Source: a virus
Taxonomy: Duplodnaviria; Caudoviricetes
Length of the DNA stretch: 64,000 bases
IMG/VR virus record: IMGVR_UViG_3300014039_000538
Location: 2,460 to 66,459 of that record
Direction: 5' to 3' (one strand)
Below, piece after piece: positions 5,349-55,624 of this stretch; positions within the stretch are counted from its first letter, which is position 1; every line of letters begins with the position of its first letter. The notes below the pieces were generated by a model. It was not told the DNA's origin. It saw only the letters and a list, made by a program, of their open reading frames with translations, and searched no databases. The position numbers were made by a program, and so were the translations under genes.

Positions 5349-6647
5349 TTAATTGTCCTGTTCTCTAACCAATATTTCAATCGTAGAAATTATTCCTGCC
5401 GGTTGAACTATATCCAACAATTCCTGATATATTTCTTCTGCTTCCTTGCCGGTCGCACCGAAAATATACGCGCTATCAAAATATGACATTTTGCTATAGT
5501 CCACGCTCTTGAAATCATCACTGTTTACTGGCGACTGCGGCGCAAGTGCCTTCTGTCCGTCCAAATAAGTCATGTTTTCGTAGCCGTCCAACGGCTCTAT
5601 GTCATTACTTCCCTCTGTTACAATCGGGCTTACATCCTCCTCTAAAGGCGCGTCGTCAAAGTAACCCAAAGAATCGTAATCCGTTTCTCCTGCATCCTCG
5701 CCGCCCGATGAGTGATAGCCCATTGTGTCGTAATCGAACGCTACAATGTCGTCGTTTGTTCCCGGCGCAAGGTTTGCCGTTTCATCAGAATAAACACCCT
5801 TGAATACCGCAACCAAACTAAATGTAGACGCGCCGGTTTTCTCATTAAGCCGCGCATAGTCCAAAAATGCGTAATAGCCCGGCTCATACAAGAAAATAAC
5901 CTGCACACTTGAAATATTTACATCAGTAATGAAATAAAAACTTTTATTATCCCAGTCCGATGATTCAAAGTGCATTGAATATTCTGTACTACTCCATGCG
6001 CCAAACTCGCCGCCTTTTGGATTCCAGTATCTATTGTTATTGTCCTTAATCTGTACGCGGATATTGCCTTTCAGGAAGAAATGCAGGAAATAACTTGTAT
6101 CTTTTGAAACGCTTACACTCTGCGCGCAAGTTCCCGACGCATTGAATAAAACGCCGGTCGTTCCCTCAAAGCACGCCTCATGCTCATAGCTGCAATCTGT
6201 CAGCGTCCATGCGTTTTTACGCTCAAAATTGCCGTCTTCAAGTAAGTTTTCCTCAAACTTTTCTGTATTATTCACAAGGTAAACATTCTGATTGTTAAAG
6301 AAGGTCTTAAAGATATTTAAAATGTTCCACTTGTCGCCCCAAACTTTATCGCCGTTACGGTAAAAAAGAAGTTTGTTGCGCTTTAAGAATGTCGCTTCAC
6401 TTTCATTCTGTAATTGTGAGATAACAGAAAATACGGCAAGTGTTTTTTGTAACTGTTCGCCTGATTGAGTATAAATACTTTTATTTTCCGTCCACGCTTT
6501 CCTTGTCTCTTCCAAGTCCTCGAAAATACTTTCTATCGTGCCGCCGCCTTCTCCGTCAGCAAGCAACGCCTTAAAAGTAGTTCCTGCCTTGTTTACCAGT
6601 GTAGGAAAAACGCTTTTAATAAAGTCGCCTATTGAATTAACCGCCAT
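5349..6647 (-). CDS. Baseplate wedge/tail protein with a carbohydrate-binding-like domain
   Basis: Follows baseplate J; NLLEDGNFE...W motif typical of CBM-like beta-sandwich modules. Confidence 0.5.
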   Translation of the reverse strand: MAVNSIGDFIKSVFPTLVNKAGTTFKALLADGEGGGTIESIFEDLEETRKAWTENKSIYTQSGEQLQKTLAVFSVISQLQNESEATFLKRNKLLFYRNGDKVWGDKWNILNIFKTFFNNQNVYLVNNTEKFEENLLEDGNFERKNAWTLTDCSYEHEACFEGTTGVLFNASGTCAQSVSVSKDTSYFLHFFLKGNIRVQIKDNNNRYWNPKGGEFGAWSSTEYSMHFESSDWDNKSFYFITDVNISSVQVIFLYEPGYYAFLDYARLNEKTGASTFSLVAVFKGVYSDETANLAPGTNDDIVAFDYDTMGYHSSGGEDAGETDYDSLGYFDDAPLEEDVSPIVTEGSNDIEPLDGYENMTYLDGQKALAPQSPVNSDDFKSVDYSKMSYFDSAYIFGATGKEAEEIYQELLDIVQPAGIISTIEILVREQDN

Positions 6648-53071: not shown

Positions 53072-53129
53072 ACTCCGGCGTAAAGCCGGGTGATTCAAGA
53101 TACTTAATTACACGCTAGTCGCGTGTAAT
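53072..53129 (-). promoter_or_regulatory. Two hairpins downstream of VR2
   Basis: 9-bp stem 53107-53115/53121-53129 over the stop codon; CCGGC-GTAAA-GCCGG at 53075-53089. Confidence 0.75.
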
Positions 53130-53828
53130 CAGGAAAGCCGGGGCAACGCCACCGTAGCTATTGCTGGCATCGGCGTTGTTGCTATAACCGATGCTGTGGA
53201 CACCGCAGAAGGCGGTGGAGATCGAGGCGTGCGGCGATTTCAGCCACCACCACCATATATCACTATCATCGTTTAACACTTTGATTCTGTTTTTTCTTGA
53301 CTTGAAATATTCAAGGTCTTCAAACACCTGCTCTTTTGTAAGCAAGCTGCAATCCTTGACATCTACACCGATAGCCTTAACAAGCGCGTTTCTAAAAGCG
53401 TTTTTGAGATAACCGCCTAATTCTGTTTCTTCAAAGTCGCCGCTCTTTACATAATCTTCATCAATGCAGTGTCTGAAAAGAATATTTTCAAAGTTGAACA
53501 AAACGCCGTCTTTCCTTACATCAACCGCAATTACCGGCACGTTCTCAAGATTGATTTCTTCAAAACTTCCAGTCGCTTTTACTGTAAACTTCTTGATATA
53601 GAATCTGTCGCCGACTTTTACATATTTGTCAGCCTCAAGACTGTTGACTGCCTGTTTCACGTCCCTGAAAGTCATTGGTTTTCCGGGCTTTTCAAGTTCA
53701 CTGCTACAGCCTTTTTCAGATTCATTATCTGATTCAACAAAAATGGTAATACCTTCCGTTTCGTTTTCAGAAAATCCGGCAAGTTTATAACCCTGTTCTT
53801 CGATTGCTTTAATAAGTTCCCATTTCAT
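53115..53828 (-). CDS. DUF6273/CLec-like protein; remote DGR target 2
   Basis: C-terminus WWWWLKSPHAS...GVAPAF encoded by VR2; no signal peptide or transmembrane segment apparent. Confidence 0.9.
   Translation of the reverse strand: MKWELIKAIEEQGYKLAGFSENETEGITIFVESDNESEKGCSSELEKPGKPMTFRDVKQAVNSLEADKYVKVGDRFYIKKFTVKATGSFEEINLENVPVIAVDVRKDGVLFNFENILFRHCIDEDYVKSGDFEETELGGYLKNAFRNALVKAIGVDVKDCSLLTKEQVFEDLEYFKSRKNRIKVLNDDSDIWWWWLKSPHASISTAFCGVHSIGYSNNADASNSYGGVAPAFLITRD
53134..53238 (-). repeat. DGR variable repeat VR2
   Basis: 15 mismatches to TR in 105 bp, all at TR adenines; same IMH-like end as VR1. Confidence 0.95.
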
Positions 53829-53838
53829 ATTTTCCCCC

Positions 53839-54357
53839 TTAGTTTTTTCCGTTCACAAGTTCCTGACGTTCCTGAACTGTCATTTCATTCCACGGCTTAA
53901 CCCCTTTTATGTTTAGTTGTGAGAAAATCGCCATTAAGCAACTTTTCACAATCGCATTTCCTGCCTGTTTGTAAAGCTGCGTTTTACTGTTCACTTCCGC
54001 CGCTCTGTTATAATCAGCGTCCGTGTAGTTCATCAGCCGGAAACATTCTTTAGGCGTTAATTTTCTAATCACGTATTTCATATTTCTTGCCTCTATAACC
54101 TTTGGTTGAATCCCCCCCCCTGCACAAGTAGGGATTGTCGGGCAAACGCCATATCTTGAATAAACGCGGTTCGCGCTCTCAAAAGTATGGTCTATGGTGT
54201 TATCCATTTGCCCTATGACTTCTACGCTATTTTGTCTTGTCAGCACGTTCACCCTCGCATTGTTTGCTCGTAAGGTTGGGCATCCCCCCCAGAAAACTCT
54301 GTTTTCTTGTTCAAAGCCGGATTCTTCAAGTAGTCCAAGCATTTGTAACTTAATCAT
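53839..54357 (-). CDS. C5 DNA methyltransferase C-terminal part (TRD-like units plus motifs IX-X)
   Basis: IRKLTPKECFRLM...LYKQAGNAIV; own AGGAG-N7-ATG; G7 (54284-54290) and G9 (54112-54120) tracts. Confidence 0.85.
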   Translation of the reverse strand: MIKLQMLGLLEESGFEQENRVFWGGCPTLRANNARVNVLTRQNSVEVIGQMDNTIDHTFESANRVYSRYGVCPTIPTCAGGGIQPKVIEARNMKYVIRKLTPKECFRLMNYTDADYNRAAEVNSKTQLYKQAGNAIVKSCLMAIFSQLNIKGVKPWNEMTVQERQELVNGKN

Positions 54358-54553
54358 TGTTTAGCTCCTGCACTAAAAGCGGTATATAACCGCCACCAGT
54401 TCCCATTGACGAACATAAACAAGTACAAACTCCGTCAAGTTTTATGCTTTGGTGTTTTTGCTCGCCGCCGATTATCACGAATACTTGACTAGGTTTTATA
54501 TGAAGTTTGCAAAAATCTGTCCGTCTCTCCAAACGCTTTTTACCAGTTCCCAT
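54350..54553 (-). CDS. Stand-alone TRD-like methyltransferase segment
   Basis: GGAG-N6-ATG; QKHQS...GVCTCLCSSMGTGGGYIPL resembles the GVCPTIPTCAGGGIQP unit of the next ORF. Confidence 0.5.
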   Translation of the reverse strand: MGTGKKRLERRTDFCKLHIKPSQVFVIIGGEQKHQSIKLDGVCTCLCSSMGTGGGYIPLLVQELNND

Positions 54554-54662
54554 AAATCACTCCATTTTGAACATCAAATCCAGTTCCAAACCCCTTGTAA
54601 TCTCTCGCCATAAGAGTTTTTGCTACCGTGTTTCCTACGGTCTTAATTCTCTTGTAGTTCAT
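54540..54662 (-). CDS. TRD-like methyltransferase segment
   Basis: VAKTLMARDYKGFG...QNGVI; this frame is open back to the heptamer repeat. Confidence 0.45.
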   Translation of the reverse strand: MNYKRIKTVGNTVAKTLMARDYKGFGTGFDVQNGVIYGNW

Positions 54663-54797
54663 CAAACAAGGAAACAACTCCTGTTCCGTCAGATTGCAAG
54701 TTTGAGATTCCTGCGTCATATCGTGCTTTAATACAGTTTGCCCTTGAAAGTTTTTTCGGCTCTCGTATTGACAAATCAACTGCACATTGGCATGATT
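54643..54797 (-). CDS. TRD-like segment, out of frame with the MTase N-terminal part at the current repeat number
   Basis: ANCIKARYDAGISN...GTGVV; in frame if the repeat count is a multiple of 3. Confidence 0.5.
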
Positions 54798-55624
54798 CTC
54801 TGCTCTCTGCTCTCTGCTCTCTGCTCTCTGCTCTCTGCTCTCTGCTCTCTGCTCTCTGCTCTCTGCTCGATTGCCGGCAATATACCCCTAGCAACTAAAC
54901 TTTCAATCAGTTTATCCGCCTTTTCGCTCGTGATAAAAAACTGCTCGTCTACTTCCGTTTCTAAGTAGTCGTCTATCACTTTTTCAAGCGGTATGCTTTC
55001 AGGAAAATTAAACTCTATAAAGTCGTCTGAAAGCACACTTACCATAAAGCAACGCTCGCGATTCTGCGCCACTCCGTAATCTGCCGCGTTCATATCCGCG
55101 ATAAAATTACAGTAGCCTCTCTTCCGCAAGAACTCCGTCCAACTGTTAAAGTCGTCAATGTTCTTGTCCTGATGTACCTGCGGCACATTTTCCATAAGCA
55201 AGATGTCGGGAAGATTATCACCGCACTCCGTAAGAATCCGCTCTACTTCCCAAAGCAAACCCGACCGGGTAGACTTACCCTCCAGCCAGTCTTTTTTGCT
55301 CATACCCTGCATTTTTCCTGCCACCGACAAATCGGTACACGGAAACGAGTAAGTAAGTAAGTAAGTAAACTCATTCCGCCTTTCGATTCCTAAGTCAATA
55401 GCGTGTATATCTCTTACGTCGCTTGTTGTAAAGTTTGTGCCGTGAATCGCGTTGTAACTCTTCACTGCGTATTTATCAAACTCAACAAGTTTGTAATGTT
55501 CAAAATCAGCACCTATATCGCGCAATGCCATTGCCTGCGAGCCGATTCCGCCAAACAATTCTATAAGTCTGATTTTCTTTTCCACCTTCACTTCCGGGAA
55601 GTCAAAAAGACTTTGTCCTTTCAT
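54776..55624 (-). CDS. C5 DNA methyltransferase N-terminal part (motifs I-VIII)
   Basis: IELFGGIG, YSFPC, ENV, QNRERCF; stops 7 codons after the repeat. Confidence 0.9.
   Translation of the reverse strand: MKGQSLFDFPEVKVEKKIRLIELFGGIGSQAMALRDIGADFEHYKLVEFDKYAVKSYNAIHGTNFTTSDVRDIHAIDLGIERRNEFTYLLTYSFPCTDLSVAGKMQGMSKKDWLEGKSTRSGLLWEVERILTECGDNLPDILLMENVPQVHQDKNIDDFNSWTEFLRKRGYCNFIADMNAADYGVAQNRERCFMVSVLSDDFIEFNFPESIPLEKVIDDYLETEVDEQFFITSEKADKLIESLVARGILPAIEQRAESREQRAESREQRAESREQRIMPMCS
54798..54867 (+). repeat. Perfect heptamer tandem repeat (CTCTGCT)10
   Basis: Counted: 10 units with 7-nt period inside the MTase reading frame. Confidence 0.95.

Follow-up and report, generated by a model that had tools for sequence, protein, structure and literature searches.

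The 64,000-nt stretch of phage DNA analyzed here (positions 2,460 to 66,459 of IMG/VR record IMGVR_UViG_3300014039_000538; the window) contains a minus-strand gene, alpha, that encodes the catalytic half of a C5 DNA methyltransferase and runs into a perfect array of ten heptamers. Taken together, the observations below suggest that alpha is probably one part of a split, multi-module phage C5 methyltransferase in which the array serves as a hypermutable frame selector, choosing the putative recognition unit that is joined to the catalytic half. A sequence-only reading of this DNA had proposed that the repeat number selects which unit resembling a target-recognition domain (TRD) is fused, and with it the specificity of the enzyme. 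The first part of that proposal stands, carried by the reading frames, by natural alleles and by the openness of both frames; that the alleles would differ in specificity we infer from sequence.

Tandem Repeats Finder places the perfect 7-nt array, with 10.3 copies, at 54797-54868 and gives it a score of 144, the highest of any tandem repeat in the window, where the runner-up scores 69. This score and the natural length polymorphism of the array mean that it is not a chance feature. It starts 62 codons past motif VIII and codes for the cyclic hydrophilic peptide SREQRAE in all three frames. The catalytic half, the array and the three paths out of it are as follows.

54868..55624, minus strand: alpha gene, catalytic N-terminal half (PF00145, E=9e-40, profile positions 2-216).
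55066-55052, minus strand: alpha motif VIII, QNRER, residues 187-191.
54798..54867, minus strand (coding strand 54867-54798): frame selector, (AGCAGAG)x10, a perfect array.
54776..54797, minus strand: frame 0 tail, IMPMCS and stop, read with 10 (also 7 or 4) units; alleles P0132, P0125, P0126.
54643..54797, minus strand: frame +1 path, read with 9, 6 or 3 units, from three-frame translation; alleles P0130, P0001, P0131.
54540..54797, minus strand: frame +2 path, read with 8 or 5 units, from three-frame translation; alleles P0128, P0127, P0004.

With ten units, the state of the window, translation continues as ...EQR-IMPMCS and stops at 54776, six codons past the repeat, which leaves alpha without a recognition unit. 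Frame +1, entered with 9, 6, 3 or 12 units, translates ESCQCAVDLSIREPKKLSRANCIKARYDAGISNLQSDGTGVVSLFDELQEN (...VDLSIREPKKLSRANCIKARYDAGISNLQSDGTGVVSLFDELQEN) and stops at 54643-54645; the first unit, TRD1 (ANCIKARYDAGISN; VDLSIREPKKLSRANCIKARYDAGISNLQSDGTGVV), occupies 54780-54673 and is followed by a 9-residue tail and the stop. Frame +2, entered with 8, 5 or 11 units, stays open after the repeat as far as 54540, with the C-terminal end ...AKTLMARDYKGFGTGFDVQNGVIYGNW (...LMNYKRIKTVGNTVAKTLMARDYKGFGTGFDVQNGVIYGNW). In this frame, about 43 codons cross TRD1 out of frame as a stop-free spacer rich in Q, S, T and E, and the second unit, TRD2 (TLMARDYKGFG; LMNYKRIKTVGNTVAKTLMARDYKGFGTGFDVQNGVI), follows at 54665-54555, with the stop at 54540-54542. 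We note that frame +2 relative to frame 0 is +1 relative to the TRD1 frame; "TRD2 path" denotes both. The sequence-only reading had anticipated these outcomes, namely a tenfold array after motif VIII, an early stop with 10 units, a first TRD-like unit with 9 or 12, and with 8 or 11 a third frame open to 54540 with a KTLMARDYKG-type end, and Tandem Repeats Finder, the motif coordinates and three-frame translation agree with it throughout. A further idea, that the frame +2 segment LTEQELFPCLMNY...VGNTVA is what remains of motifs IX-X, was dropped; alignment with relatives identifies this segment as the conserved lead-in to TRD2 (LNYKRI...VAKTL).

A fixed repeat length can be ruled out, because near-identical genomes carry n=3, 4, 5, 6, 7, 8, 9 and 10 units and so cover all three frames. 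In the protein cluster surveyed for alleles (at least 90% identity), members differ only in the repeat peptide and in the tail that follows it.

10, 7 and 4 units: stop tail; 282, 275 and 268 aa.
9, 6 and 3 units: TRD1 tail; 324, 317 and 310 aa.
8 and 5 units: spacer and TRD2 tail; 356 and 347 aa.

Each allele is found on 1-7 contigs, from different samples and assemblers. Direct counting in the DNA of 21 near-identical loci gives 4, 5, 6, 7, 8 and 9 units, compared with 10 in the window. One of these loci (L086) is identical to the window across 5.8 kb save for n=4 in place of 10, another (L079) differs only in having n=6 and in one G, and a third (L074) in one substitution, n=7 and one G. 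Genomes that differ in n thus show 0-1 substitutions per ~6 kb; the repeat changes much faster than substitutions accumulate, a behavior that marks a contingency locus. A non-triplet repeat within an open reading frame (ORF), with a tract that is polymorphic between near-identical genomes, is likewise what characterizes contingency loci built on simple sequence repeats (SSRs).

Were TRD1 the only unit of importance, stops would be expected in the overlapping +1 frame as often as by chance. We estimated this chance rate by resampling the synonymous codons of each TRD1 unit with the codon usage of the family. Of the 25 repeat-bearing loci, 24 have no stop in the +1 frame across TRD1, against 2.4 expected, a count that overstates the number of independent events since the compared loci share descent. 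Among repeat-less loci this frame is stop-free in 1 of 10, against 1.5 expected. The +2 frame across TRD1 holds 0-5 stops per locus and at least one everywhere but in a single locus (L047). A stop-free frame confined to repeat-carrying genes is what selection for the use of both frames would predict, and the contrast with the repeat-less relatives appears hard to explain without selection for read-through. Variability within TRD1, a unit conserved in 24 loci, is 0.48 at third codon positions versus 0.30 and 0.25 at the other two; since third positions vary most, the TRD1 frame appears to be constrained as protein and the +1 reading to be a stop-free passenger, which fits a spacer role. TRD2 aligns with 75% mean column identity and 13 of 37 invariant columns. 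Each unit is conserved across loci whose catalytic halves are just 50-70% identical.

The same design recurs in diverged relatives drawn from IMG/VR and GTDB genomes (catalytic halves 50-70% identical). In 24 such loci a repeat lies at the same site, between the catalytic half and the CIKARYDAGISN unit. The repeats are built from ACAG/GACA (x4-11), GAAC (x12), AACAG (x8-11), AGAGC/AGCAG (x3-12) or AACAGAG-type heptamers (x3-16), or are A8-10 or G8 tracts, so that unit length is 1, 4, 5 or 7 nt and never 3. Worked out by hand, the 4-, 5- and 7-nt units each give a hydrophilic cyclic peptide with no stop in any frame. A TLxARDYKG-type unit stands in the +1 frame relative to the first unit in these repeat-bearing loci; the frame of the first unit terminates 1-16 codons past that unit, and the +1 path terminates at a stop that overlaps the next ORF. 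Of the 24 loci, 8 presently read from the catalytic half into TRD1, 10 into the +1 path and 4 into the third, stop frame. The protein tails of the top 120 cluster representatives tell much the same story; after repeat peptides such as TEQNRTEQNR, ENREQRTENREQRT and TDRQTDRQ, 27 of the 120 continue into TRD1 and 23 into the spacer and TRD2, and in many others the protein terminates a few residues later. What is conserved is the site of the switch, and not its repeat unit.

The units found just upstream of TRD1 (ACAG, AACAG, AGCAG, AACAGAG and AGCAGAG, in loci L025-L109) resemble variations on one purine-rich theme, which suggests that the length of the unit is itself evolving while avoiding multiples of three. 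One relative (L024, 2120-2537) has (AG)5 at the switch site, with TRD2 and the open frame at +2 and not at +1; across its TRD1 there are 0 stops in +2 versus 6 in +1, and the locus looks like a mirror version of the same design. Some Treponema relatives (P0077, P0093 and P0102) have another unit, of TLCARISKGF type, ahead of the heptamer repeat, and in P0102 TRD1 and TRD2 follow that unit in one frame. These layouts indicate that the position of the switch within the string of modules differs by lineage. In a 92% identical relative (P0003), which has only about 1.3 repeat units, deletion of the TRD2 region (the equivalent of 54470-54655) fuses TRD1 in frame to the unit of the next ORF, gamma; this fusion suggests that recombination shuffles the modules. 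The window contains a direct repeat of 12 nt, ATGGGAACTGGT, at 54553-54542 and 54406-54395.

Whichever frame is read, alpha holds only part of an enzyme. Motifs I, IV, VI and VIII are on alpha, which begins with an ATG that overlaps the stop codon of the ORF upstream; a separate ORF, beta, bears motifs IX and X, and gamma lies between the two.

55555-55538, minus strand: alpha motif I, FGGIGS.
55348-55337, minus strand: alpha motif IV, SFPC.
55192-55184, minus strand: alpha motif VI, ENV.
54350..54553, minus strand: gamma, a 67-aa ORF with a third TRD-like unit, KLDGVCTCLCSSMGTGGGYIPLLV, and its own Shine-Dalgarno (SD) sequence, GGAG-N6-ATG.
53839..54357, minus strand: beta ORF, 172 aa (PF00145 profile positions 252-322, E=1e-7; SD AGGAG-N7-ATG).
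54282-54259, minus strand: beta TRD4, CPTLRANN.
54168-54091, minus strand: beta TRD5, RVYSRYGVCPTIPTCAGGGIQPKVIE.
54066-54025, minus strand: beta motif IX, RKLTPKECFRLMNY.
53967-53947, minus strand: beta motif X, QAGNAIV.

Gamma shares its first 14 nt with the end of the TRD2 path and 8 nt with beta (ATGATTAA). Motifs and units are thus distributed over at least three ORFs and three frames, a layout other than the single polypeptide of the SPR and phi3T enzymes. No repeat number in the window reaches a full-length enzyme, which is why we regard the enzyme as split. The arrangement is of the M.AquI type, with motifs I-VIII plus some of the variable region on a single gene and the remainder with IX-X on its neighbor. 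The window and four relatives (L001, L002, L004 and L044) are all split after the TLxARDYKG unit, where the stop of one ORF overlaps the start of the next. The two closest IMG/VR relatives (L001 and L002), which lack the upstream repeat, are interrupted between the two units at A8 and G7 tracts, and one relative (L003) is an intact single ORF. The beta gene of L001 also carries an HNH-endonuclease-like ORF of 179 aa between motifs IX and X (5413-5952), which may be a homing element or an intron in the methylase gene.

In the mechanism that we propose, slipped-strand mispairing would alter the repeat by whole 7-nt units, and each unit would shift the downstream frame by one. With n=0 mod 3, the catalytic half would be joined to TRD1 and end early after it; with n=2 mod 3, TRD1 would be crossed as a hydrophilic spacer and TRD2 joined, the protein ending at the start of the next ORF; and with n=1 mod 3, as in the window, alpha would end six codons after the repeat. 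Because neither unit-bearing alpha product has motifs IX-X, each would have to pair with the separate beta ORF, and we expect every alpha variant to associate non-covalently with the beta product, which bears IX-X and two more units, in the manner of M.AquI. By analogy with the TRDs of multispecific Bacillus-phage enzymes, the alpha-borne unit would add its own target, and the repeat would move the enzyme among three sets of methylation specificities. A speculative benefit is bet-hedging against variable host restriction, including methyl-dependent restriction. Equally speculative are protection against changing host Type II systems combined with evasion of methyl-dependent restriction, or epigenetic effects in the lysogen.

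Three additional tracts may extend this switching.

55349..55368, minus strand: (TTAC)5 tract, coding for FTYLLTY just ahead of motif IV in alpha (Tandem Repeats Finder).
54284..54290, minus strand: G7 tract just ahead of TRD4 in beta; G8, G9 or G10 in the sister haplotype.
54112..54120, minus strand: G9 tract inside TRD5 in beta, coding for GGG; G8 in most near-identical loci and G10 in some.

The (TTAC) count is 4 in one locus (L069) and 5 in 20 other near-identical loci. In diverged relatives the nucleotide repeat is kept wherever the peptide is FTYLLTY, despite many synonymous options, and two loci (L041 and L045) change frame at this tract. We regard (TTAC)n as a candidate master on/off switch of the catalytic half. 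Gene calls that start past motif IV (P0133 and P0134) had been suspected as markers of frameshifts at (TTAC)n and were set aside; L069, the source of P0133, lies at a contig end and is also the (TTAC)4 locus. In beta, G8 at the TRD5 tract cuts off TRD4, and an 80-aa ORF with motifs IX-X only (start 54081) is called. Of about 20 copies, just three (those of the window, L086 and L070) have an intact beta; in the other states shorter ORFs that keep IX-X are called, either of 135 aa with TRD5 or of 80 aa with IX-X only, and the 80-aa form resembles the 66-aa beta of L004. With the poly-G tracts of beta and (TTAC)n as added independent switches, a dozen or more states could be reached. We incline, by a narrow preference, toward the broader view that these genes represent a widespread class of gut and rumen phage methyltransferases, in which one non-triplet repeat rotates the catalytic half among three states, two with a dual-coded module and one null, the repeats of the partner subunit and of motif IV switch on their own, and one lineage makes combinatorial methylation patterns.

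Five units at the locus share a T-[LI]/G-rich pattern, and in single-chain relatives (L010, L054, P0071 and P0115) both alpha unit types lie between motifs VIII and IX. The TRD5-type unit of L003 (RVY..G..PT..GGG) aligns with the segment ahead of motif IX in M.MpeI, and it is the only unit type to do so. Units 1 and 2 were not resolved when the 9-unit and 8-unit alleles were scanned against Pfam, and a text search of papers for the peptide motif of the unit returned nothing relevant. The assignment of units 1 and 2 as putative TRDs is made from their position, without a profile match.

Several observations weigh against the reading of alpha as a selector of recognition units. Comparison by hhalign of the TRD1 and TRD2 profiles with the profile of the RVY..G..PT..GGG unit gave no signal, hmmsearch of both profiles against PDB sequences gave chance matches only, and the similarity between the TRD1 and TRD2 profiles themselves is weak (E=0.002, probability 14%). 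The alpha variants are without IX-X, so that activity would depend on a putative alpha-beta assembly. The stop state is the most common one among near-identical contigs, at about half, and alpha-borne units could therefore often be dispensable. Where assemblies have low coverage, some of the poly-G lengths may be wrong. The shared descent of the loci in the stop test counts here as well.

Ordinary two-state phase variation, in which only the TRD1 frame works and the TLMARDYKG unit is made from its own start or is a relic, would be the conventional account, and we consider it unlikely. On its side, ON/OFF switching by SSRs is the common case for methyltransferases, gene callers place a separate ORF, of 81 or 40 aa, in the TRD2 region (P0123), and the spacer read across TRD1 is not conserved as protein. 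However, two states leave unaccounted for a +1 frame that is open in nearly all repeat-bearing loci and not in repeat-less ones, as well as an alpha-spacer-TRD2 form about as frequent among the 120 representatives as alpha-TRD1. The n=8 and n=5 alleles occur on at least eight contigs, the +1 path always terminates at the TRD2 stop that overlaps the start of the next ORF, and the internal ATG at 54662 is without a good SD sequence. Less likely again is a frame state that acts mainly on the downstream genes and tunes amounts, either through an alpha stop (at 54776, 54643 or 54540) that sets translational coupling to the 67-aa ORF and beta, or through slippage that makes TRD1-TRD2 fusions. Only the TRD2 path overlaps the next start, by the 14 nt given above, and the next two ORFs overlap as well, which would suit coupling; but the 67-aa ORF and beta have SD sequences of their own. 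Slippage has a precedent in the reported frameshift suppression at SSRs in a mod gene (10.64898/2026.04.01.715767), and the A8-A10 or G8 tracts of some relatives can slip in transcription; against it, the stop of the TRD1 frame shifts by 1-16 codons among relatives, with no conserved slippery motif there. For these last two reasons a programmed +1 ribosomal frameshift from TRD1 to TRD2 was rejected as the main mechanism. Neither coupling nor slippage explains the openness of the +1 frame across all of TRD1, and we see them as a possible added layer.

Decay would make the gene a pseudogene with a neutral, unstable microsatellite, its frames being leftovers of a single-frame multi-TRD enzyme. 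The absence of a full-length product at any repeat number in the window, the interruptions of L001 and L002 at A8 and G7 tracts and the existence of the intact single-ORF L003 all agree with such a history. Yet every unit is conserved across loci with strongly diverged catalytic halves, the architecture (a split after TRD2 and overlapping starts) recurs in dozens of diverged phages, the breaks are located at repeats whose unit is never a multiple of three, and the avoidance of stops in a second frame implies selection; we judge decay very improbable. That the length differences are an artefact of assembly or sequencing is hardly credible, even though the contigs are short-read metagenome assemblies, some at ~5x coverage, and poly-G tracts of 8-10 are prone to error. 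At 21-70 nt, the arrays are, we assume, shorter than the reads; the eight copy numbers recur, each in several independent samples and assemblers (SPAdes, MEGAHIT and Logan); and contigs with high coverage (27x, 50x and 80x) differ too. A frame selector thus probably remains the best account of this gene.

The window belongs to a single contig of 66.5 kb with genes for terminase, portal, major head and tail sheath proteins and a reverse transcriptase of the diversity-generating retroelement (DGR) type, and by its encoded structural genes the genome is that of a myovirus-like phage. The methylase lies in the replication module, adjoining SSB and a DnaC-like gene.

998-2248: DGR-type reverse transcriptase (phrog_1423, E=5e-81).
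53115-53828: DUF6273 gene, directly downstream of the beta ORF.

Near-identical copies are embedded in contigs of 180-250 kb, one of which, of 253 kb, is assigned to a Treponema metagenome-assembled genome, and most close relatives come from uncultured Treponema of gut or rumen. From the embedding in large contigs and the membership in a Treponema genome we conclude that this is a temperate phage with a Treponema host. A blastn search of the locus against 50,697 GenBank phage records returned a single distant match, to the catalytic part, and no annotated close relative.

In bacteria, phase-variable methyltransferases are known to work as epigenetic on/off switches; the present gene is viral, and its switch apparently selects modules by frame, which requires selection that keeps two frames open over the same DNA. 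If this is true, it would be, as far as the literature that we found goes, the first slipped-strand choice between protein domains in overlapping frames and the first methyltransferase of programmable specificity carried by a virus. Should the specificities differ, phages of gut spirochaetes and, judging by the relatives, of many gut and rumen bacteria would hedge against restriction, including methyl-dependent restriction, and phage counter-defence would be as stochastic as the phase-variable defences of the hosts. The design would also serve as a naturally occurring model for selection-maintained dual coding, and as a compact genetic selector with three states. It is directly testable, because natural 8-, 9- and 10-unit alleles with identical flanks exist.

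In the literature, we found no description of repeat-selected alternative recognition modules in a C5 methyltransferase, nor of any phase-variable phage methyltransferase. The nearest analogue is the Type I system NgoAV of Neisseria gonorrhoeae, in which a poly-G tract in hsdS1 switches between GCAN8TGC and GCAN7STCA and tract lengths vary among strains (PMC9577141). In both cases a repeat in a specificity gene changes the module that is joined, and for NgoAV this changes the methylated sequence. NgoAV differs in being a bacterial Type I N6-adenine system that is not phage-borne, and its homopolymer fuses or separates two serial genes, with neither overlapping dual-coding frames nor a clean-stop state.

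The Bacillus-phage enzymes M.SPRI, M.Phi3TI, M.Rho11sI and M.H2I are C5 methyltransferases with tandem modules between motifs VIII and IX, and each module is believed to contribute a single target. Their tandem recognition modules go back to Balganesh et al. 1987, as cited in PMC3404938. This module layout is the one found in the single-chain relatives of the present gene; the Bacillus-phage enzymes, in contrast, are single polypeptides in which all modules are always present, and they are not described as having repeat tracts, altered frames or a division into separate genes. C5 enzymes made of two chains occur in nature, and fragments that result from a cut in the variable region can complement one another (PMC3404938). 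M.AquI is divided in that region, with I-VIII on one chain and IX-X on the other, and the smaller chain of M.EcoHK31I bears only motif IX (PMC3404938). Both have a fixed composition, one specificity and no hypermutable tract, whereas here alpha has three C-termini and beta has poly-G switches of its own.

A C5 CpG methylase of Mycoplasma agalactiae is under poly-G on/off control (PMC9465063). Like this enzyme and the Type III mod phasevarions, the present gene has a non-triplet repeat within its ORF and a tract polymorphism that shifts the frame. Those systems are described as ON/OFF host genes with allelic TRDs fixed per strain, whereas here two non-stop frames lead to different conserved modules. 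The (CAAT)n repeat of Haemophilus influenzae lic1 has three outcomes by n mod 3, which are expression levels of a single protein, set through alternative start codons. Like the present array, lic1 draws three outcomes from a single repeat, but it has no alternative C-terminal domains.

Hypermutable repeats are also known from phage genes, and the poly-G tracts of Campylobacter phages are phage contingency loci. On/off homopolymers in T2 agt and T4 rIIA were recently reported and proposed to serve bet-hedging against host defence (10.1101/2025.10.21.683753); the word "methyltransferase" is absent from that preprint. The present gene shares with these loci a hypermutable repeat in a phage gene, but theirs are homopolymers that act on/off in glucosyltransferase, rII or receptor-binding genes, and no frame-based choice of modules is described for them. 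The gene thus combines known elements, namely a split C5 enzyme, tandem TRDs and SSR phase variation, and what is new is the placement of two modules in overlapping frames behind one repeat.

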